The notes beneath the pieces were generated by a model. That model had not been told where the DNA came from, made no database searches, and saw only the letters and a list, made by a program, of their open reading frames with translations. A DNA stretch of 46,724 nt from the IMG/VR virus record IMGVR_UViG_2579778634_000020. The stretch is one strand, 5' to 3'. Both the position numbers and the translations under genes were made by a program. This stretch comes from a virus (Duplodnaviria > Heunggongvirae > Uroviricota > Caudoviricetes). Position 1 is the stretch's first letter, and every line of letters begins with the position of its first letter. Below, piece by piece: positions 550 through 38,981 of the stretch.

Positions 550-732
550 TTACATTGTGTCTGGTTCTTCCGGCCACTCAATATCAGGTGCAGTTGATGT
601 ATCAACACGGTTCAACAACACCCGATACTTTTTCCATGCGGCCAGTAACGCTTTCTCTTCCTCCGTTGCGATTTCCAGCTCAACAACAGTCTGAACGTAC
701 CGGGAACAGCCTCCTTCAGAGCTTGAAGGATA
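550..732 (-). pseudogene. 3' remnant of a tail fibre assembly (Tfa) gene, no start codon, in frame directly behind the stf stop
   Basis: Minus-strand frame after the stf TGA stop reads [60 protein letters not shown] then TAA at 550-552. The ...[33 protein letters not shown]... block matches the conserved C-terminus of lambda-type Tfa as I recall it. No ATG or GTG precedes it. Confidence 0.55.
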
Positions 733-3222
733 TCAATGTTCGCTTCCTGTTAACTGCCGGACAAGTGCAACCAGTTCGCTTACCTGATTTTCCAGAGTGC
801 TGATCCGGGTGTCTGCTGTTGCCAGATTTTCACGTAGCGTTGTGTTTTCCTCTTCCAGCGCGGTAACGCGATCATCTGTTTCACGGGCGACCTGAACAAG
901 TAAACCCGTCACGGCGGCGTAGTCAACATTAAGATAGCGCGTTTCTTCGCGTAGCTCGTTGCCGTCAACGGTCGGACCTTGTAACGCTTCACCGTAATGA
1001 GTAAACGATCCCACAGCTTCCGGTAGCGCCTCCATTACCTCCTGAGCGATAACGCCAGCGTAAGGTAGTCCGTTTTCCTTAAGGGTATAAGTGTACCCGT
1101 TCATTTTGCGGATGGCTTCAGTTGCATCACCTATAACCTGAATGTTGTCCTTCAGATCACGATCAGATGATTGGTTTATCGTTTCGCATGTAATGTGACC
1201 AGACGCTTTAAGATTTTTTACATCAAGTCTGTCGTTTGCAAAATTATATGAAATTGCGGTGCTGGTGCTTCCGGCATCATCATAATCGCTTTTATGAATA
1301 AACCAGTTTCCACCATTAGCAATGAGAGTATAAGTAGGCGTGTTAGCCGGGCGATCTGTTTCATTAAATCTTATTGCTGGGTTAGCGCTCCTTATTTGTA
1401 AAGGTTTTTCAACCGTGGATTTCAGTATCGCACTATCTACAATTAAATTACCTTCTGAGTTAATGTTTAGATATTTTGAAGCACCAGTTGAACCATCGTA
1501 TGTAAACCTTATTGTTAATTGACCTGGCTCATTTGATAAAGTCTCAACATACATATCAGCACCAAGACGCACAGTGCTGTCAGTTGCTAACAGTCTTGTA
1601 TGGAGAATACCACTAGATGTGTATGTATTGGTCGAATCACTATATCTATCAAGAAATAGACTGTTAAGTTGAGGGCTATTGCTCCTGCCTAATCCAAGAT
1701 TCGTTCTGGCACCATCAATAGTTGCCGCACCAGTACCTCCGGCCGCGATCGAAAGCGGAATCCATTCGCTATTCTCTGCATCGTAATAACCCCATGTTCC
1801 TGAATCGTAGATACTAAAAAATTTGCTTGCATTTTGACAATATACGCGTGTATTACCTGTTAGTTGAGTAAGCCTGTCCACTTCATCTTTTCTTGCGTGA
1901 CGCGTCCACTGCGGGCCTATTGTCGGATTCCAGCGATAAGTATAAAGCGAGCGCGTAGCCCATCCCTGAAATACACCTGTATACGCTGGTGTTCCATCTA
2001 CCTGACTAATAAACCCCGTAAGACTGCTTTCACCGGATGCAATCGATGGAAAGCCTTTTGCATTACTCATAATGCGCATAAATCCGATATACCCTGATGG
2101 GTTGCCGGAAATATCAGGACAATCACGCGGGGCTGAGCCAAGACCGATATTATCGCCAACAATTACTTGCGCCTGGTTGCGATAATTAAGTGCGTCCGCT
2201 GCAGATTTCGCCGCGTTTGTTTCACTGGATTTAGCATTAGTTTCGCTGGCTTTAGCGTTTGTTTCGCTGCTCTTTGCTGCTGCCTCGCTATTTTTCGCGT
2301 TGGTTTCTGATTTTTTGGCTGCTGTCGCGGAGTTTGCCGATGCAGTTTGTGAGGCCGCTGCCGCCTGTGCGCTGTTATCCGCATTCGTCTCAGACGTTTT
2401 TGCGGCCTTCGCGGAATTTCCTGCCGCCGTTGCCGAGGAAGCTGCACTACTGGCACTTGATGATGCGTTCGTTTCTGATGATTTCGCTGCCTCTTTTGAG
2501 GCCGCCGCATCCCGGGCTGAGGTGGCAGCTTCTGACGCTTTCGTGGTCGCGGTGGATGCAGAAGTGGCTGCAGATTTTTGTGACGCTGCAGCATTCGTTT
2601 CTGACGTTTTCGCCGCACCGGCACTGGTAGCCGCCGCGCTTTTTGAGGACTCTGCAGCGGCAGCACTTTTTGATGCTTCAGTAGCCTTTGTTGATGCCGT
2701 TCCTGCGCTGGAAGACGCTGACTGAGCCGACGTCGCGGCCTGCCCGGCTGATGTGCTGGCTGCACGTGCTGAGCCTGCAGCATCAGTCGCATGGGTTGCC
2801 GCCTCACGGGCTGATGTGCCGGCATCGCTGGCTGACTTCTTCGCGGCTGCCGTGTTCTGTTCCACTGCGGACGCGTTACGCGCCACCTCTTCCACCATCA
2901 GTTCAAAGCGGCGCAGTGCCTCCGGACGGGCATCATCCTCCGTCATGGCACCGAGAAAATCATTCAGTGTGCCCGGCTTTGAGTCCTCATATACGGTGAT
3001 AATCCCGGCGTGTGACGGCGGGAATCCCTCCACCAACAGACTGACGCTGTACTGACCATACTCGACGTCCATTGTGTAACGCCCGGCTTCATCCGGGTTT
3101 TCTGAGGCCACTGTGTTCACCACCACCGTGGTGCTGTTGCGCCTGGCCTTTAGCTGAATGGTGCAGTTTTGTATCGGCTTACCTGCGCCATCTTTCAGTA
3201 CACCTGAAATCCGTACTGCCAT
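733..3222 (-). CDS. stf: Side tail fibre protein: lambda Stf-like N-terminus, Ala/Ser/Thr-rich repeat shaft, C-terminal intramolecular-chaperone-like domain
   Basis: 829-aa ORF. N-terminus MAVRISGVLKDGAGKPIQNCTIQLKA...VYEDSKPGTLNDFLGAMTEDDARPEALRRFELMVEEVARNA is lambda Stf/StfR-like from memory. The C-terminal ~130 aa (NGYTYTLKENGLPYAGVIAQEV...LENQVSELVALVRQLTGSEH) resembles the self-cleaving chaperone domains (peptidase S74 type) of endosialidase and T5-type fibres. RBS GGGGGG upstream. Confidence 0.9.
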   Translation of the reverse strand: MAVRISGVLKDGAGKPIQNCTIQLKARRNSTTVVVNTVASENPDEAGRYTMDVEYGQYSVSLLVEGFPPSHAGIITVYEDSKPGTLNDFLGAMTEDDARPEALRRFELMVEEVARNASAVEQNTAAAKKSASDAGTSAREAATHATDAAGSARAASTSAGQAATSAQSASSSAGTASTKATEASKSAAAAESSKSAAATSAGAAKTSETNAAASQKSAATSASTATTKASEAATSARDAAASKEAAKSSETNASSSASSAASSATAAGNSAKAAKTSETNADNSAQAAAASQTASANSATAAKKSETNAKNSEAAAKSSETNAKASETNAKSSETNAAKSAADALNYRNQAQVIVGDNIGLGSAPRDCPDISGNPSGYIGFMRIMSNAKGFPSIASGESSLTGFISQVDGTPAYTGVFQGWATRSLYTYRWNPTIGPQWTRHARKDEVDRLTQLTGNTRVYCQNASKFFSIYDSGTWGYYDAENSEWIPLSIAAGGTGAATIDGARTNLGLGRSNSPQLNSLFLDRYSDSTNTYTSSGILHTRLLATDSTVRLGADMYVETLSNEPGQLTIRFTYDGSTGASKYLNINSEGNLIVDSAILKSTVEKPLQIRSANPAIRFNETDRPANTPTYTLIANGGNWFIHKSDYDDAGSTSTAISYNFANDRLDVKNLKASGHITCETINQSSDRDLKDNIQVIGDATEAIRKMNGYTYTLKENGLPYAGVIAQEVMEALPEAVGSFTHYGEALQGPTVDGNELREETRYLNVDYAAVTGLLVQVARETDDRVTALEEENTTLRENLATADTRISTLENQVSELVALVRQLTGSEH
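2200..2850. repeat. Low-complexity coding repeat region inside stf (K/A-SETNA and ASxxAxT units)
   Basis: The protein here is an almost pure A/S/T/K/E repeat (…KTSETNAAAS…KSSETNASSS…KTSETNADNS…KKSETNAKNS…KSSETNAKASETNAKSSETNAAKS…). The DNA is repetitive and GC-rich, which explains several spurious overlapping ORFs on both strands. Confidence 0.7.
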
Positions 3223-27415: not shown

Positions 27416-27880
27416 TTACTTTAAACACTGCTCGGTTATGTATTGCTGAGCACCTTCAAGTTGGGCCTGCATCATTACCAGTCGTTCCCGCAGGGTGAAA
27501 TAATCCCGTTCAGCGGTGTCTGCCAGTCGGGGGGAGGCTGCATTATCCACGCCGGAGGCGGTGGTGGCTTCACGCACTGACTGACAGACTGCTTTGATGT
27601 GCAACCGACGACGACCAGCGGCAACATCATCACGCAGAGCATCATTTTCAGCTTTCGCATCAGCTAACTCCTTCGTGTATTTTGCATCGAGCGCAGCAAC
27701 ATCACGCTGACGCATCTGCATGTCAGTAATTGCCGCGTTCGCCAGCTTCAGTTCTCTGGCATTTTTGTCGCGCTGTTCTTTGTAGGCGATGGCGTTATCA
27801 CGGTAATGATTAACACCCCATGACAGGCAGACGACGATGCAGATAACCAGAGCGGAGATAATCGCGGTTACTCTGCTCAT
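27416..27880 (-). CDS. Rz: Rz i-spanin
   Basis: 154 aa, N-terminal TM anchor then coiled coil; start overlaps the endolysin stop as ATGA; Rz1 embedded in the +1 frame. Confidence 0.9.
27475..27660 (-). CDS. Rz1: Rz1 o-spanin (outer-membrane lipoprotein)
   Basis: 61 aa entirely inside Rz in another frame. Lipobox LVVVGC, proline-rich ([19 protein letters not shown]). Confidence 0.85.
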
Positions 27881-32031: not shown

Positions 32032-33861
32032 ATGAGCACTTCCGCATACAAGAGCAAAATTCGAACACTCCAGTGCGCGTTAAAAAACGGTGAATTTGAA
32101 CCATTCATACAACATATCCGTTTTCCATACTTTAAAAATATAGAGCAGAATGCAAGGATCGATTTTCAGTTCCCTATAACGGCTTTAGTAGGAAAAAATG
32201 GAACTAATAAAAGTTCTGTTATCAAAGCGCTATTTGGTTGCCCACATGGTAAAAATATAACTCGTTATTGGTTCACAACTGAAACAGATGAGTTTCCTGA
32301 CCTAAAACTTGCTGATGGCAGTTCTCTTAAACCTAGATATATATATGGATATAAAAATGCTGATGGCCGTTTAGTTGAAATACTCCAAGCACGTATCAAT
32401 GCTACCAAGAAAACAATCGATTATTGGGAAACAAGTCGACCATCTGTTGGTGATAACATGGAGAGTATTTCGGATGATCTGGGTGCTAATAGTAATGCAA
32501 CCAGATGGAAAAAAATCAAGAAGGGATTGGTTTTCCTAGATTTCAGATCGGAAATAAGTGCATTTGATAGATGTATGTATCACTCTGATTTTAAATTAAG
32601 AAAGAAGAAGAGTGGTGTATTAATTACAAAGCAAGACTATATCAGAAGCAAATCTAAATATATAAAGAAAGCTTTTGATGAAAAGCTAAGTAATTTAAGA
32701 CTCTGGGGGGCGGAAACCATTGTTAAAAATATAACCTTGGCGCCAGAACTAGTTGAGCACGTCTCATTTATATTAGGGAAAAAATATAAAGTCATTAAAT
32801 TTCTTGAGCATCGGTTATTTGGAACCAGAGGAGGAACCGCTTTACTTTCAACTGATAAGTTGAACTATACAGAAGCGTTTGCTGGAAGTGGTGAATTTGC
32901 AATAGTTTCACTAATACTCAATATTTATTCGGCCAAACCTAATTCATTAATTCTTCTTGACGAACCAGAAGTTTCACTTCACCCTGGTGCACAAAAAAGG
33001 ATGATGGATGTTCTGTACTCTATTGTTGAGCAGAAAAAACATCAAGTGGTAATATCAACCCATTCTCCTGTTATTGTGAACACTCTTCCCAAAGATGCCA
33101 TTAAATTATTTGTTTTTGATGAAGAGAGTGAAACAGCTAAAATAGTTCAAAATATAGCACCGGATGAAGCTTTTATAGAGCTAGGGCATGATATTAACAA
33201 GAAAACAATAATTGTAGAAGATAAATTAGCTAAAGCAATTATAGATAAAGCGATTAAAAATGATGAAAGATTAAGCTTATCATTTAGTGTAAGTTATATA
33301 CCAGGTGGTTCGGAGACCATTTTAAGCAAGCATCTTCCCAGTTACGCTGTGGTAGAACGCAATGATATTTTGTTTTTACTTGATGGTGATAAAAACAAAA
33401 AAATAAAACCAGTAAGAATTAGTGAAATTGCTGATGCTGATTTAGTTAATACAATGTGCAAATATTATGGTTGCGAGTTAATTATCAATGCCAGTGGTAG
33501 TAATGGCAAAAAAAATGAACAAGAATCTAATAGACTCAAAAGGCAAGTGCTTGAGTATGCATTCAATAAAGTGCAGTATTTACCATTTGATACTCCCGAA
33601 CAATTACTCATTGAAAAGGCAATTACGCCAAGTGAAAAAGAAATAATTGATTCACAGACCTGGAGTTCTAATGATCCAGAACTGTATAAGAATCAAATAA
33701 GATTATTAGCGCAACACCTGTATGATAAAGAAGAAGTAAATGCAGAGGAAATTTTTTGCCTCCAACAAATGATGACCGCAAGACTTAAAAATGAATTGCC
33801 TGAATTTATAAAAATAAGAAAAATAATTACTCAGGCTCTTGACCGTGGTATCATTAGGTAG
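32032..33861 (+). CDS. OLD-family-like nuclease candidate: ABC-type ATPase with a C-terminal TOPRIM-like region
   Basis: 609 aa. P-loop variant LVGKNGTNKSSV (54-62), Walker B and D-loop LILLDEPEVSLHP, H-loop VVISTHSP; C-terminal TIIVEDKLAKAII … ILFLLDGDKNKK gives a conserved Glu and a DxD about 55 residues apart as in TOPRIM. Architecture and size resemble P2 Old / GajA-like proteins. Visibly AT-rich gene. Confidence 0.7.
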   Translation: MSTSAYKSKIRTLQCALKNGEFEPFIQHIRFPYFKNIEQNARIDFQFPITALVGKNGTNKSSVIKALFGCPHGKNITRYWFTTETDEFPDLKLADGSSLKPRYIYGYKNADGRLVEILQARINATKKTIDYWETSRPSVGDNMESISDDLGANSNATRWKKIKKGLVFLDFRSEISAFDRCMYHSDFKLRKKKSGVLITKQDYIRSKSKYIKKAFDEKLSNLRLWGAETIVKNITLAPELVEHVSFILGKKYKVIKFLEHRLFGTRGGTALLSTDKLNYTEAFAGSGEFAIVSLILNIYSAKPNSLILLDEPEVSLHPGAQKRMMDVLYSIVEQKKHQVVISTHSPVIVNTLPKDAIKLFVFDEESETAKIVQNIAPDEAFIELGHDINKKTIIVEDKLAKAIIDKAIKNDERLSLSFSVSYIPGGSETILSKHLPSYAVVERNDILFLLDGDKNKKIKPVRISEIADADLVNTMCKYYGCELIINASGSNGKKNEQESNRLKRQVLEYAFNKVQYLPFDTPEQLLIEKAITPSEKEIIDSQTWSSNDPELYKNQIRLLAQHLYDKEEVNAEEIFCLQQMMTARLKNELPEFIKIRKIITQALDRGIIR

Positions 33862-33884
33862 TGATTCTGGATGCAGAGGGAAAA

Positions 33885-34925
33885 ATGAAAAAAATCAAAG
33901 TGTTTGACTTCTTTTCCGGTTGTGGTGGAACCAGCCAAGGTTTCCATCAAGCTGGAATGGATATTGTTTTTGGCCTCGATTTCGACGTTGATGCAGCCAG
34001 TTCATTTCGTGCAAATTTCCCGCAGGCTGCTTTTATTAACTCGGACATTAGGTTAATCGACAACAATGCCATAAACAAGTTAGTAAAAAAACATCGTAAT
34101 GATTACATTCTTTTTTCAGGATGTGCGCCTTGTCAACCGTACTCTAAGCAAAACTCAAATAAGAAAAATGATGATCCACGATTAGATCTATTAAAGGAAT
34201 TCAGTCGCTTTGTAGAGCATTATATGCCTGATTTTATTTTTGTTGAAAACGTGCCAGGAATGCAAAAGTTTAACAAAAATGAAGGAACATTCATGATGTT
34301 TTTAGAAATGCTTTCATCAAAGGGATATAGTGTAGATTATAAAGTAATGCCAGCTGCGTGGTACGGTGTACCACAGACGCGAGAAAGATTAGTGCTCATT
34401 GCATCCAAGGATTTTTATGTCGCATTGCCTTCTCCTACACATGGGGTTGGAAATACTCCCTATTCAACAGTAAAGGACTGGATCGCTAATTTACCGAAGA
34501 TAGAAGCAGGAGAAAAGCATAATAGTATTCCTGATCATGAAGCTGCACGCTTATCAGAGCTTAATTTACGTAGAATAAAATGCACTCCTGAAGGTGGAAG
34601 TCGAGAATTTTGGCCAGATGAATTGATTTTAGAATGCCATCGTAACCATAAAGGGCATACAGACGTATATGGACGTTTGAGTTGGGACAAACCAGCCAGC
34701 GGACTAACAACTCGTTGTATTAGCTATTCAAATGGACGTTTTGGACATCCAACACAAAATCGAGCAATATCGGTTCGTGAAGCAGCGTGTCTACAAACAT
34801 TTCCTTTGGATTATAAATTTATTGGTTCTTTGCAATCTCGGGCTCGTCAAATAGGAAATGCGGTCCCTCCGAAGATGTCTGAAACGATTGGAAAACATTT
34901 GCTTAATATAATCAAAGCCTCCTAG
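33885..34925 (+). CDS. DNA (cytosine-5)-methyltransferase
   Basis: Motif I FDFFSGCGGTSQGF, motif IV GCAPCQPYS (catalytic PC), motif VI ENV, motif VIII QTRER, motif X GNAVPP. ATG at 33885 with RBS AGAGGG; an in-frame GTG at 33861 overlaps the upstream TAG. Confidence 0.9.
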   Translation: MKKIKVFDFFSGCGGTSQGFHQAGMDIVFGLDFDVDAASSFRANFPQAAFINSDIRLIDNNAINKLVKKHRNDYILFSGCAPCQPYSKQNSNKKNDDPRLDLLKEFSRFVEHYMPDFIFVENVPGMQKFNKNEGTFMMFLEMLSSKGYSVDYKVMPAAWYGVPQTRERLVLIASKDFYVALPSPTHGVGNTPYSTVKDWIANLPKIEAGEKHNSIPDHEAARLSELNLRRIKCTPEGGSREFWPDELILECHRNHKGHTDVYGRLSWDKPASGLTTRCISYSNGRFGHPTQNRAISVREAACLQTFPLDYKFIGSLQSRARQIGNAVPPKMSETIGKHLLNIIKAS

Positions 34926-34958: not shown

Positions 34959-35390
34959 TTAATCGTGCTCACCAGACAACCTCCTGAAATTACTCTGGTA
35001 AAATGCCAGTACACGCTGCATAACTTCGCTTTTCCGGCACTCGCGACAGATTATATTCAGGCGCCTGTCGTAGCGGCGTATTTCTCCGTCTGGTAATGAC
35101 CAGATAAGGTCAGGATCAACCACAACCGTTTTTTTCACCTTTGCCCTGGATAGTTTTTTGCGGGCGTTTTGCCAGTCCTTACGAGCCTGCTCAGACGGGA
35201 ATAATCCGTAGCCTGAATTGTAAACATCACCACTGGCGACCAGTTCTCTGGCGAGAGTGCTTATGTAATACCTTGATGCACCGGTTTTAGCCTCCAGAGC
35301 CCGTAACGTCTCGCGACCGCTCAGACGTACAAGTTCAACAACCTGCCCTTTAATTTTTTCCCGCTCTTCTGGTGTAAATACTTTTGCCAT
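34959..35390 (-). CDS. Hypothetical protein (143 aa)
   Basis: ATG at 35390 preceded by RBS GGAGG. Basic protein with a Cys pair (ICRECRK). No family recognised. Confidence 0.55.
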   Translation of the reverse strand: MAKVFTPEEREKIKGQVVELVRLSGRETLRALEAKTGASRYYISTLARELVASGDVYNSGYGLFPSEQARKDWQNARKKLSRAKVKKTVVVDPDLIWSLPDGEIRRYDRRLNIICRECRKSEVMQRVLAFYQSNFRRLSGEHD

Positions 35391-35405
35391 AGGTGCCTCC
35401 GGCAA

Positions 35406-36167
35406 TCACTTTTCCGACACAATACGACTGGAGGAATCGAAAATCTGTCGAACAATATCCCGGTGCTTGTTCAGCTCCCGCAGCGCGGCGCAGACTCGCT
35501 CCCACTTCTGGACATGATTTTTCGCCCGACGCAGTTCACGGTTTGCCATATGCAGCGATGGTAAAATCAGGTTATCCGCTTGCGTTTCAGTAAACGATGG
35601 CAACGACTGCACAATGTCCGCCACAGTTTCTGTTTTAATATCTTCCTGTGTTGCAGCTTCCTGTACTGGTAACGCAACACCGGCTAGCTGAGGAAAGGCT
35701 TTACCATCTGTTTCCGCTACCGATGCAGCTTTCGGCTCTGCTGGTAAATTACCGCCCGGCATGCAGTAACGAAATTTACCGTTCTGATTAACGCGAATCA
35801 GACGAGCTTTGCTGATTGCCATTGCCAGCGTTGAAGCCACTTTGCGGGATGTGGTACCGAACACCGTAGCCAGTTCATCCGCAGTTAGTGGACCACGTTG
35901 TTCAATCGTCGCAGTTAAATCGCTCTCTGAAATTTTCGCGACTGTTGCCGTGGTAGTTTCTTCCGGCAGTTCTGCCGGCGCTGGCTGTTCCTGCTGAACG
36001 TTGTTATCAGCCACACGCCAGGTGTACGCGCTTTTATCAACGAAACCAGCCTTTTTCAGTTCCCATAGTTCGTTCAGCACTTCTTCACGGCTGATATCAA
36101 GTCGCGCAGCAAGTTCTATGGATGTGGCTTTTCCCATTGCTTTCAGTGCGTCAAAAACAGTCTCCAT
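35406..36167 (-). CDS. Hypothetical DNA-binding protein with two winged-helix-like segments
   Basis: Likely start is the ATG at 36167 ([43 protein letters not shown]…); a second similar segment is [31 protein letters not shown]. Immediately downstream of the DnaC-like gene. Confidence 0.55.
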
Positions 36168-36189
36168 TAAATTTTTCTCCCGGTAAAAA

Positions 36190-36936
36190 TTACTTCGCAA
36201 TTCCTGGCTGGACGACATTCGGACGCCAGCTCTCCCAGTTAAAATTCACCCATCGCCCGCCGTTCATGGTCATGCGATCCATAATCCTCTCGCCGAGCAA
36301 TGTTTTCATGGCCTCATAATTCAGGTTTGTCAGCATCCCCACGCTGCGCATCGACGCTGTCCGGCGATCAACAATCTGGTGCAGCACCACCTGCTCGTTT
36401 TTTGTCTCGCGCTGAATGCCAATTTCATCAAGAACCAGCAGATCCACTTGGCACAGTTCCCGCAAAAATTTTTCGCCTGATTGCCCGTCGTCATAGCTGG
36501 CGTGTAGGGCACTCATGACATCAGCCACGGTAACCACAATCACTGTCTGGCCATCTTTCAGCAGGCGATTCCCGATAGCTGCCGCTAAGTGGTTCTTCCC
36601 GGTACCAGGTTTTCCGCTGAACGCAAAATTTGTACACCCGGTCATCAGTTCATCAGCGATGGATTTCGCCTGACTCAACGCGTATCGCTGCCCTTCGTTC
36701 TGCACCTGGTAATTCGAAAACGAGCATTTGCGGTGCAATGGCTGGATGCCAGAGCGATTCAGAATTTTTTCCACCCGCAACTGACGATTCTGACGGTTGA
36801 TCTCCTCACAACGTTTCTGGCCTTCGGAAAGTTGCCACTCGCGCCACTCCGCTACCGTCTTGAATGGCGCGGTTACATGCGACGGGGCCAGTCTGCGGAT
36901 ACGTTCAAGAACGTCGCCTGTCGCAATATTTTTCAT
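36190..36936 (-). CDS. ydaV: DnaC-like helicase loader / replication protein (lambda P functional analogue, IstB-like ATPase)
   Basis: 248 aa; Walker [18 protein letters not shown], Walker B LLVLDEIG. Downstream of the O-like gene. Symbol by synteny with K-12 Rac. Confidence 0.85.
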
Positions 36937-36942
36937 GGTCAG

Positions 36943-37731
36943 TTACCCCCTGAAGCCTGGCGGGATCGCACTATCCGGTAACGAGACGGTGTTAACCTGT
37001 CGGAGTAACGTCTCAGGTCGAACACCTTTCGGCGCGAACAAGCCCTGGTATTCGTTGGCGATGCTGTGTCGAATCACCTGCTCAGGTGAAAAACCCTGCT
37101 GGCGGAATTTTTCCAGCTCCCGTATCGCCCCGTTAGCGCCCTGCTCCGTTCGAATCGGTTTTCGCAATGCCTGCCTGAACTGAACCCACTCATGCCAGAG
37201 TGTTTCCGGCAACCAGTCAGGCAGCTCGATAGCCTCCGGTTCGAATTTTTTAGACGCTCGTTTTTGGCGAGGGGGATTTAGGGGGAGATAAGTATTTATA
37301 TCTTCCTCTTTCTCTTCCTCTGGTAACGCTTTTTGATCCGTTTTTGTAACGCTGGCAGCGTTACCTTTTCGTTTCAGTTCTCGTATTTTTGTTACTCTCT
37401 CGTTTGTAACCGCCCGTTTTTTAGAGCTTTTCCCGTTATGGCGCTCAAAGTTAGGAAGCGACAACACACCATTAGTTTCGACCAGCCATCCAACCTGAAT
37501 TAACGCATCAGCAAAACCAGCCATAAAAGTGATGCGATCTATTGCACTTTTTGTAACGCCGCGAGCGTTACACTCTGCGTTACCGTCTATCATTTGTTGA
37601 TCCGCCCATGCCCAGAAGCGAATGACTTTCCCTAATGCGGCATCTGGATCAATATTCAGAATCTCAGCAAGCCTGAATATTTCCGGCTTATCCGGCGTAA
37701 TAACTTCGAGCTTTATCCAGTTTGAAGCCAT
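36943..37731 (-). CDS. ydaU: Replication initiation protein (O-like, YdaU/DUF1376-like)
   Basis: 262 aa, upstream of the DnaC-like loader. Contains internal palindromic repeats and an acidic/AT-rich stretch. Symbol by synteny. Confidence 0.7.
   Translation of the reverse strand: MASNWIKLEVITPDKPEIFRLAEILNIDPDAALGKVIRFWAWADQQMIDGNAECNARGVTKSAIDRITFMAGFADALIQVGWLVETNGVLSLPNFERHNGKSSKKRAVTNERVTKIRELKRKGNAASVTKTDQKALPEEEKEEDINTYLPLNPPRQKRASKKFEPEAIELPDWLPETLWHEWVQFRQALRKPIRTEQGANGAIRELEKFRQQGFSPEQVIRHSIANEYQGLFAPKGVRPETLLRQVNTVSLPDSAIPPGFRG
37346..37364. promoter_or_regulatory. 19-bp inverted repeat GTAACGC-N5-GCGTTAC, copy 1 (inside the O-like gene)
   Basis: GTAACGC TGGCA GCGTTAC; a GGTAACGC half-site at 37322-37329 sits just upstream. 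Confidence 0.5.
37553..37571. promoter_or_regulatory. 19-bp inverted repeat GTAACGC-N5-GCGTTAC, copy 2 (inside the O-like gene)
   Basis: GTAACGC CGCGA GCGTTAC; a GCGTTACC half-site follows at about 37577-37584. Confidence 0.5.
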
Positions 37732-37743
37732 TTGTTTTCACCT

Positions 37744-37762
37744 TGTAACGCTCGCAGCGTTA
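37744..37762. promoter_or_regulatory. 19-bp inverted repeat GTAACGC-N5-GCGTTAC, copy 3 (immediately upstream of the O-like RBS)
   Basis: GTAACGC TCGCA GCGTTAC, 13-31 nt upstream of the O-like start codon and adjacent to its RBS AGGTG. Confidence 0.5.
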
Positions 37763-37808
37763 CATTTAACTGATACCGAACAAAACAGTTCGGTACGATT
37801 AATTTCAA

Positions 37809-38231
37809 TCAATGCACTACGACAGAATCGCTAGGAGAACCGCCGCCGCTGAAATGTGCTTTACGGTAAACGGCCTGGACTGCATCATCATGCGCATCAA
37901 TTGCCGTACTCAGTGCATCCTGTGCCGCCAGTAATGCACGGCGTTCCAGGGTATCGAAGATGCAGAGTCGGTGACGCAGCTCGCGAGGAAGAATTGCCAG
38001 AACCGCAGGGATCAGTTTCTGAATTTTTTCCCTTTGCGCATTCGTTTCACCTTTCAACCAACGATGATAGATATTCTGCTGATTGTTCCAGTCCTTGCCT
38101 GGTACCAGGGGCAATTCGCCGCCCCCCTGGCGCAGATATTCTTCAGTAATTGCGTTAGCGACCCACGCCTGCCCTTTTTCGGCTGCCAGGGCTAACAACA
38201 CTGATTCGATGTGCTCATGCTTGATTTTCAT
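37809..38231 (-). CDS. ydaT: YdaT-like protein
   Basis: 140-aa ORF translationally coupled to the upstream Cro-like gene, between ydaS-like and the O-like gene as in K-12 Rac. Positional call. Confidence 0.7.
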   Translation of the reverse strand: MKIKHEHIESVLLALAAEKGQAWVANAITEEYLRQGGGELPLVPGKDWNNQQNIYHRWLKGETNAQREKIQKLIPAVLAILPRELRHRLCIFDTLERRALLAAQDALSTAIDAHDDAVQAVYRKAHFSGGGSPSDSVVVH

Positions 38232-38482
38232 GAATCAACTCCCATCAGCTTTTTCGTAGTAGTTTTATTTCTGCCAATAGTTAAAATTGCATCGGCAGAA
38301 AATAATCCGTTTGATGCATGAGCGATTTTTTCAGCGTAATTTGTTTCGCCGGTATATTCTGTGCGAGGCAATTTTCCGTTATCCATCCATTTGTAGATTG
38401 CTCTTTGGCTGACACCACAAACGTCGGCCACAACAGAAACGCGAACAGTTTTGATTACATCTTCAAGTGTTTTCTGGTTCAT
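38228..38482 (-). CDS. ydaS: Cro-like HTH regulator (YdaS-like)
   Basis: ATG at 38482 preceded by RBS GAGGG: MNQKTLEDVIKTVRVSVVADVCGVSQRAIYKWMDNGKLP…, a Cro/XRE-type HTH. Divergent from the racR-like repressor gene. Confidence 0.75.
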   Translation of the reverse strand: MNQKTLEDVIKTVRVSVVADVCGVSQRAIYKWMDNGKLPRTEYTGETNYAEKIAHASNGLFSADAILTIGRNKTTTKKLMGVDS

Positions 38483-38497
38483 ATCACCCTCACAATG

Positions 38498-38571
38498 TGA
38501 ACTTTGAGTACATGCTATAACAGAACTGACAGTACATTCAAGAGCGAATATCATTGAACTTATGGTTCATG
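38498..38571. promoter_or_regulatory. Immunity switch region (OR-like) with direct repeats containing AGTACAT
   Basis: 17-bp direct repeats TGAACTTTGAGTACATG (38498-38514) and TGAACTTATGGTTCATG (38555-38571, overlapping the racR ATG), plus AGTACAT at 38531-38537, 24 bp from the first copy. The racR ATG has no Shine-Dalgarno. Confidence 0.45.
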
Positions 38572-38981
38572 AAGATAAAGCGCGTAAAGAGTTCGCCAGT
38601 AGGCTTGCGCTAGCCTGTGAAAACGCTGGTTATGAACAACATGGAAGGCAGGCAGAAATTGCCCGTCGAATGAAATTAACACCAAAAGCGGTTAGCAAAT
38701 GGTTTAATGGTGAAACAATTCCTCGCCGAGAGAAATTAAGGGAATTAGCAACACTCATTGGAACAACACCAACCTATCTTTTGGGAGAGGATACAGAAGA
38801 AAGTGGACAGATACGTTTCTATCAGGAGTTAAATCCAAGACAAAAAATCATCATTGACCTTCTGGACGAGCTCCCTGACAGTGAGACAGATGAACTTTTA
38901 AAAACTCTTGAGGAGAAAAAACAGAAGTACAATGCAATTTACGAAGAGTTAGCACGAAAGAAAAAACAAAAAGCCTCTTAA
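38562..38981 (+). CDS. racR: Prophage repressor, RacR-like (XRE-family HTH)
   Basis: 139 aa; HTH in …QAEIARRMKLTPKAVSKWFNGETIPRREKLRELATLIG…; charged C-terminus. Divergent from the Cro-like gene, with the early-left operon downstream on the same strand. Confidence 0.8.
   Translation: MVHEDKARKEFASRLALACENAGYEQHGRQAEIARRMKLTPKAVSKWFNGETIPRREKLRELATLIGTTPTYLLGEDTEESGQIRFYQELNPRQKIIIDLLDELPDSETDELLKTLEEKKQKYNAIYEELARKKKQKAS

Follow-up and report, generated by a model that had tools for sequence, protein, structure and literature searches.

The window analyzed here, a stretch of 46,724 nucleotides (nt) from a Caudoviricetes virus (IMG/VR record IMGVR_UViG_2579778634_000020), carries a Rac-like lambdoid replication module. 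The local genes of the module are on the minus strand, and the gene for a cI-like repressor is on the plus strand. Three copies of a 19-base-pair (bp) palindrome, GTAACGC-N5-GCGTTAC, lie in and just upstream of the gene for an O-like replication initiator. The palindrome, its half-sites, and the N-terminal domain of the initiator (the N-domain), which is proposed to read them, are the main subjects of this analysis. The features on which the argument turns, with protein lengths and positions in amino acids (aa), are the following.

36943-37731, minus strand: O-like replication initiator, 262 aa (phrog_2509, 'replication initiation protein', E=5e-88)
37402-37731, minus strand: N-domain of the initiator (aa 1-110), predicted winged helix and proposed reader of the palindrome
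37346-37364, no strand: palindrome 1, proposed origin core; linker codons 123-129 of the initiator
37553-37571, no strand: palindrome 2 (site 2), putative auxiliary intragenic site; codons 54-60, in a surface loop of the N-domain
37745-37763, no strand: palindrome 3 (site 3), putative upstream accessory site; enterobacterial relatives only
37323-37329, no strand: extra half-site, GCGTTAC in gene orientation; abuts the polypurine tract
37577-37583, no strand: extra direct half-site, 12 bp from palindrome 2; derived from a 12-nt duplication
37289-37321, minus strand: polypurine tract (37301-37321) and AT-rich stretch (37289-37300), a degenerate (GAGAA)n; proposed DNA-unwinding or helicase-entry element
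36190-36936, minus strand: DnaC-like helicase loader (ydaV), the partner of the initiator (PF01695, NF009043 and NF005931 DnaC matches)

The initiator consists of an N-terminal DNA-binding domain, a linker with basic and acidic parts, and a C-terminal DnaT-like domain; a similarity to the C-terminal domain of DnaT (PDB 2ru8, E=1.6e-4) extends over residues 170-262. The protein matches no Pfam family at E<0.01, Phage_rep_O, the Pfam family of lambda O, included, and the N-domain belongs to no NCBIfam family either. The PHROG match labeled 'O-like' spans residues 76-236 and does not cover the N-domain. An AlphaFold2 model of the N-domain is a winged helix of moderate confidence (predicted local distance difference test, pLDDT, 70), in which the peptide encoded by site 2 falls in a surface loop of low pLDDT, residues 54-57.

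An exact search of the window returns three matches to GTAACGC-N5-GCGTTAC and no others, and none of 100 dinucleotide-preserving shuffles of the window gave any match. All three copies described in an earlier note on this DNA are thus real, but the third had been placed one base off, at 37744-37762 instead of 37745-37763. It does lie upstream of the initiator start codon beside the ribosome-binding site, as that note had it, at 14-32 nt rather than 13-31 nt from the ATG (37731); the gap is 13 nt, and the palindrome is directly 5' of the Shine-Dalgarno sequence AAGGTG, touching it. Both intragenic copies had been described as close to an acidic-coding stretch. Copy 1, a perfect 9+1+9 palindrome (GTAACGCTG-G-CAGCGTTAC), does adjoin that stretch at 37301-37321, whereas copy 2 is about 230 nt away from it. 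The two extra half-sites are likewise present, with corrected coordinates of 37323-37329 and 37577-37583. The heptamer GTAACGC occurs 17 times in the window against about 3.8 expected over its whole length, and 8 of the 17, the two extra half-sites among them, are within 37323-37763.

A further doubt raised earlier concerned the spacing of about 200 bp, which is unlike that of the tandem iterons of lambda. The clusters are indeed far apart (192 and 207 bp), with one full palindrome in each, and there is no tandem array of at least four full 19-bp iterons. The doubt nevertheless falls away, with the palindromes at the head of three separate clusters and half-sites phased at 11-12 bp inside a cluster, in the manner of iterons. 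In the Rac lineage cluster 2 has gained a third half-site, and the surface loop of the initiator four residues (ECNA), through a 12-nt duplication (37572-37583 in the window, codons 51-54); the resulting half-site at 37577-37583 is missing from most non-enterobacterial relatives and from some 96%-identical E. coli copies. A half-site with one mismatch (GCGTTAA in gene orientation, +225) is found at 37500-37506, about 50 bp downstream of cluster 2, and is kept in nearly all Rac-type copies. At some distance from the initiator gene, five isolated GTAACGC heptamers (at 645, 863, 981, 2873 and 3076; span 645-3082) fall within 2.5 kb, almost all of them in an open reading frame (ORF) of 829 aa at 733-3222 on the minus strand, and none is palindromic. 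These single half-sites are probably unrelated, the product of chance or codon bias.

Relatives of the N-domain were taken from phage GenBank records at 32-100% identity (Escherichia, Klebsiella, Xanthomonas, Vibrio, Pseudomonas, Ralstonia and Salmonella epsilon15), from IMG/VR viral contigs, and from a set of one genome per species that includes Enterobacterales, Pseudomonas, Burkholderiales, Verrucomicrobiota (Akkermansia) and Planctomycetota; a first homologue search, with the 110-aa domain as query, had returned fragments only. Selection below 90% identity gave 67 representatives, the window included, in which the palindrome was counted at up to two mismatches. It is present at both the N-domain loop and the linker positions in 54 of the 67. 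Either GCGTTA or CGTTAC is the most repeated hexamer of the gene in nearly all relatives, at about +148/+161 and about +345 to +395, and relatives as far apart as those of Enterobacteria, Pseudomonas, Verrucomicrobia and Planctomycetes retain the core GTAACGC-N5-GCGTTAC. The distance from the N-domain site to the linker site ranges from 189 to 231 bp among relatives and is dominated by the 3-nt coding period. The upstream copy, palindrome 3, is found in 8 of the 54 representatives that have both intragenic palindromes, all of them enterobacterial.

The linkage also holds in the opposite direction. A reverse search of viral contigs, for nothing more than two palindromes 180-210 bp apart, returned 120 loci, and the N-domain is encoded in every one of them (120/120). 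Among 66 representative loci the N-domain is present in all 66, a DnaC-like gene in 11, a YdaT homologue in 5 and the window-type C-terminal domain in 3. The earlier note would have taken a motif common elsewhere in the genome as a refutation. The motif is not common elsewhere: 105 distinct loci of related phages (1.06 Mb) contain 249 exact palindromes, of which 247 are inside the initiator gene or next to it. A third copy is present in 34 of these 105 viral loci. Two of the 105 carry a further exact palindrome about 4.5 kb from the initiator gene, in a small ORF (L205, 1368-1386; L248, about 1561). At 50% identity the N-domain family, for which Pfam has no model, falls into some 6,106 clusters; only two records of a plasmid collection encode the domain, so that a minimal replicon is not to be had ready-made. 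The stretch with the module matches prophages of many E. coli genomes at 100% identity, and 2,225 of 5,426 complete E. coli genomes contain related sequence.

The Rac element of E. coli K-12 provides a natural domain swap. K-12 YdaU and the window initiator share only their C-terminal halves (81% identity over aa 139-262); the N-domain of YdaU is DUF1376 and shows no relation to that of the window by hhalign (probability 0.1%). K-12 YdaT is 94% identical to its counterpart in the window, and the K-12 ydaS-ydaW region contains no GTAACGC-N5-GCGTTAC, even when three mismatches are allowed. Thus the palindrome follows the N-domain and not YdaT, the C-terminal domain or YdaV. The linker repeats of K-12 YdaU are different (TGTTCAAACA). 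They include (A/G)GTGTTCAAACA and an inverted copy (L015, 2505-2575), and they are probably the iterons of oriJ. A C-rich element, CCCCC-TAAAT-CCCCC, is located just downstream of the repeats in both K-12 and the window (37262-37285).

In divergent lineages the half-site is altered, and the altered form is generally the same at the N-domain and linker sites within a genome. The forms encountered are these.

GTAACGC: most lineages
GTAGACG: Ralstonia phage Raharianne; a Limnohabitans prophage
GTCCGC: epsilon15; Ralstonia phage RPZH3
GTCACGC / GTCAC: a Rhodospirillaceae metagenome-assembled genome (MAG); a Puniceicoccaceae MAG (linker only); Vibrio phage 1.211
GTTGCGC: a Planctomycetales MAG
CTAACGC: a Pirellula MAG

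Because two sites that lie 200-280 bp apart change together, they would seem to be read by one factor with an evolving specificity, and the sole gene common to all of the variant-site loci is the gene that holds the sites. The basic segment that follows the winged helix also differs by class, being RALTxxRV with GTAACGC, RKxKxRD with GTCAC and RQARWR with GTAGAC. Since the classes are also clades, this correspondence can only suggest a connection between segment and half-site.

The DNA of the sites appears to take precedence over codon choice. Site 2 encodes the peptide G-N-A-x-S-V-T, and its codons are near-fixed in 52 representatives in which the GC content of third codon positions (GC3) runs from 0.35 to 0.71.

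Site-2 Gly: GGT in 50/52; elsewhere in the domain, 22%
Site-2 Asn: AAC in 52/52; elsewhere in the domain, 59%
Site-2 Ala: GCT in 44/52; elsewhere in the domain, 24%
Site-2 Val: GTT in 52/52; elsewhere in the domain, 39%

The linker, which otherwise varies, contains the same DNA and hence the same peptide. Among 74 distinct enterobacterial sequences the arms of the palindrome are invariant and the 5-nt spacer is variable.

A second conserved element accompanies the linker site. In the family, one to three direct half-sites precede the palindrome of the linker cluster and one more inverted half-site comes after it, all spaced 11-12 bp. Directly against the last of them stands a polypurine repeat, CGTTAC-C(T)AGAGAAGAGAAGAGAAGAGAAGA, a (GAGAA)4-5, and AT-rich sequence follows; the junction CGTTAC-C(T)AGAGAAGAG is kept across phyla, and palindrome 1 is always found just upstream of the tract in relatives. 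The tract of the window reads CAGAGGAAGAGAAAGAGGAAGAT on the minus strand, from 37321 down to 37301, and then ATAAATA. GC content is 0.375-0.425 around the tract versus 0.55-0.65 further into the gene. The tract is translated in different frames in different lineages (PREEKRRE versus PEKRREEK), and its Arg codons are AGA in 44 of 44 cases, as compared with 15 of 266 elsewhere in the same genes. It is therefore conserved as DNA and not as a peptide. Judging from codon choice, the synonymous positions of the palindromes and of the tract are held by selection at the DNA level.

The tract extends beyond the N-domain family. A search of viral contigs for the tract alone gave 103 usable loci, and the N-domain is encoded upstream of the tract in 81 of them. 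In the other 22 the initiators have different N-domains (Phage_rep_org_N, Lin1244_N, a weak DUF1376 match, and several with no Pfam hit), and their own direct repeats, phased at 11 bp, abut the same (GAGAA)n tract (for example L310, L316, L325, L341, L354, L375, L393 and L409). These loci suggest that (GAGAA)n is an origin-opening module common to several initiator families.

What is observed at the palindromes, then, is a set of motif statistics, a conservation of position, a covariation of sites, a constraint at the DNA level and an exclusive linkage to the N-domain. Dimers of the prophage's own initiator probably bind the palindromes, reading them through the N-domain, and the sites would constitute a lambda-style intragenic origin together with two auxiliary, possibly autoregulatory sites. 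The earlier note had offered as one possibility that these were sites of the O-like initiator in a lambda-like intragenic origin, and that proposal has gained support from the N-domain linkage, the sites that change together, the synonymous constraint and the polypurine/AT-rich tract.

A plausible sequence of events can be outlined. Initiator dimers would bind the palindromes and the phased half-sites through the predicted N-terminal winged helix. The linker cluster would form the origin core, made up of palindrome 1, the phased half-site at 37323-37329 and degenerate half-sites, with the tract at 37289-37321 next in line. Initiator bound at this cluster could destabilize the adjacent polypurine/AT-rich tract, so that the DNA opens; the DnaT-like C-terminal domain and the DnaC-like YdaV would bring in host DnaB, and theta replication would then start, as it does at lambda ori inside gene O. 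Palindromes 2 and 3 would be bound by the same protein, and most likely serve to stabilize a higher-order origin complex or to throttle expression of the initiator. It is possible that palindrome 3 mediates autoregulation, for which it is the best-placed candidate because it sits at the ribosome-binding site. Physical binding, firing of the origin at the tract, and the roles assigned to sites 2 and 3 are what we infer from the patterns described above.

Several points weigh against an origin of this kind. The tract of the window (GAGGAAGAGAAAGAGGAAGAT) is a degenerate version of the family consensus. Sites 2 and 3 are some 190-207 bp from the core, unlike the tandem array of lambda, and there is no clean helical phasing between sites (mean resultant length R of only about 0.5 at 10-11 bp between the N-domain and linker sites, a value confounded by the 11-12 bp half-site arrays), so that a strict looping geometry is unsupported. 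The covariation classes coincide with clades, and shared ancestry contributes to the pattern. The model of the N-domain resembles generic winged helices and no known initiator; binding, footprint or replication data for the N-domain family were not found in the searchable literature. Finally, the prophage may be defective.

The alternatives to be weighed draw in part on other genes and sites of the neighborhood, which are listed here.

38562-38981, plus strand: cI-like repressor gene (ORF list)
38228-38485, minus strand: ydaS/cro-like gene (ORF list)
37809-38231, minus strand: YdaT/CII-like regulator (PF06254)
38221-38238, no strand: perfect YdaT box, TTGATT-N6-AATCAA, on the ydaT start codon; same place and class as the footprinted Rac and CP-933P boxes
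33861-34925: C5 methyltransferase gene (ORF list)

The regulator encoded just upstream might use the palindromes as operators, and the earlier note had named a YdaT-like protein as a possible binder. The end of ydaT is only 45 nt from palindrome 3, and YdaT proteins bind inverted repeats as tetramers (PMC9986795). The repeat protected by the YdaT homologues of Rac K-12 and CP-933P, however, is [A/T]TGATT-N6-AATCAA, at the ydaS/ydaT junction (PMC9986795, PMC11879457). The 19-bp palindrome is unrelated to it, and YdaT of the window has its own perfect box at 38221-38238; a second box with two mismatches lies at 37795-37812, at the 3' end of ydaT. K-12 Rac, with its nearly identical YdaT, is free of the palindrome, and 61 of the 66 N-domain loci have no YdaT homologue at all. 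YdaT was therefore rejected as the binder, and the proposal that the palindromes are its operators is close to refuted. It is very improbable, too, that the sites are read by a host factor or a DNA-modification enzyme such as the nearby phage C5 methyltransferase. A gene for such an enzyme is present at 33861-34925, and in epsilon15 and Vibrio phage 1.211 the initiator gene is flanked by others; but the site differs between lineages on related hosts and is the same across hosts of different phyla, most loci have no methylase in the flanks examined, and a fixed position within a single gene is not a property of methylase or restriction sites. As for host initiators, the DnaA-box match closest to the locus is at 27543, and none comes nearer than about 9 kb.

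Two further explanations assign the palindromes other functions. They might operate as hairpins in the early mRNA (in translation control, as an RNase III site or as a stabilizer) rather than as double-stranded protein sites. Each palindrome can form a stem of 7-9 bp, changes in the arms between lineages preserve pairing, and the 9-bp hairpin that copy 3 would form is immediately 5' of the Shine-Dalgarno sequence; the region around it scores z = -3.6 relative to shuffles. Pairing alone does not account for the sharing of one arm sequence by all copies in a genome, and the clusters contain unpaired direct half-sites, phased at 11-12 bp, that are unable to form hairpins. The spacer sequences, which would be loops, vary freely, and the interval 37100-38000 has no Rfam match at E≤1; the likelihood of an RNA function in place of protein binding is thus slight. 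Alternatively, the palindromes could be purely autoregulatory or roadblock operators of the initiator, with the real origin elsewhere in the prophage. In plasmid initiators such as F RepE, an inverted repeat that shares the half-site of the iterons is an operator for autorepression. Copy 3 is placed at the ribosome-binding site. This explanation has a small chance of being correct, since the linker cluster displays a full origin anatomy, with phased half-sites abutting a constrained polypurine/AT-rich tract, the upstream copy is missing from most of the family, and exact palindromes almost never occur elsewhere in these phage genomes.

The proposed intragenic origin has clear parallels among known systems. 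The origins of lambda and the Stx phages are located in the middle of gene O and contain O-binding repeats and an AT-rich tract, and in Stx phages a gained repeat adds 13 aa to O (PMC7466680). As in those phages, the putative origin of the window lies in the initiator's own gene, in the part that encodes the linker between domains; it contains 19-bp sites of dyad symmetry for the N-terminal domain (binding being predicted here), and an easily melted tract follows the sites and is followed in turn by the helicase-loader gene. Gain of a repeat lengthens the protein in both cases, by 4 aa in the window. The differences are also considerable. No similarity to lambda O is detectable in the N-domain (no Pfam hit), the sequence of the site is different, and the C-terminal domain of the window initiator is DnaT-like. 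In place of the four tandem 19-mers of lambda, the core has one palindrome with phased half-sites, and two further clusters are found about 200 bp away, one of them in the codons of the DNA-binding domain. The element that would melt, a generic AT-rich run in lambda, is a conserved (GAGAA)n polypurine in the family of the window.

The oriJ/YdaU system of K-12 Rac has the same ydaS-ydaT-ydaU-ydaV module and likewise has repeats in the linker-coding region. With its DUF1376 N-domain, other repeats and no GTAACGC palindrome, it serves as a control for swapped specificity and is a different element. In SPP1, oriL is inside gene 38, and G38P binds repeats in its own gene beside an AT-rich DNA-unwinding element, or DUE (PMC6316719). 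The predicted initiator sites of the window are similarly repeats in the initiator's own gene beside an AT-rich element. Initiators of iteron plasmids are winged-helix proteins for which the same half-site is direct at the origin and inverted near the gene start, where it permits dimer-mediated autorepression. A likeness to F RepE, P1 RepA, R6K pi and RK2 TrfA may be seen in the window half-site, which occurs both direct and, in the palindrome at -32, inverted (the roles being predicted); unlike theirs, the window sites are inside coding sequence and belong to a phage module that needs a DnaC-type loader, and no sequence relationship is shown. Rep proteins are reported to contact a strand of the AT-rich DUE (PMC4081077). 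A parallel for the tract comes from the viral contigs, in which Phage_rep_org_N and Lin1244_N initiators have their own 11-bp-phased repeats abutting the same (GAGAA)n. Their repeats are direct, in contrast to the palindrome of the window, and the window protein reaches none of their Pfam models.

For lambda the location of the origin within the initiator gene is textbook knowledge, and an intragenic origin with initiator sites is a known kind of element. Thousands of phages, from those of E. coli to those of Planctomycetes, share the layout seen in the window. The searchable literature yielded no account of the 7-N5-7 site, of a second site in the codons of a DNA-binding domain or of the (GAGAA)n junction, and nothing on the N-domain family. 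What appears to be new is a large, Pfam-less family of N-domains with one recognizable cis-element that overrides codon choice in a coding gene. Such an element would provide a simple sequence rule for locating origins, and for predicting replication specificity and incompatibility, in thousands of prophages, including Rac-like elements. The half-site variants of the different lineages are natural specificity variants with which initiator-DNA recognition can be dissected, and the role of the shared (GAGAA)n element in origin opening is directly testable.

A broader generalization, rather doubtful at present, is that the window exemplifies a widespread and undescribed 'basal origin' design, in which a lineage-specific array of half-sites is set against a universal (GAGAA)n in unrelated N-domain families (the window type, Phage_rep_org_N, Lin1244_N and DUF1376-like). 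The (GAGAA)n would then be a strand-specific element at which the initiator or helicase loader opens the DNA, analogous to DnaA boxes with DnaA-trios, and the second site in the codons of the DNA-binding domain would be a built-in control of copy number or expression.

Some additional features of the neighborhood may be recorded. Genes for C5 cytosine methyltransferases are near or beside the initiator gene in the window, in epsilon15 (L011, 342-1511) and in the Vibrio phage (L005, 504-1508 and 2889-3312); no link was found between these genes and the palindrome. The spacer between ydaT and the initiator gene contains no sigma-70-like promoter. It does contain a strong hairpin of 8-9 bp (TACCGAAC...GTTCGGTA) at 37774-37795, which scored as a possible terminator on the plus (antisense) strand and for which a promoter was not found. 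Its place recalls that of the lambda oop terminator between cII and O. Beyond the DnaC-like loader, at 34959-36218, come DUF1627 (ydaW-like) and DUF977 genes, as in Rac.

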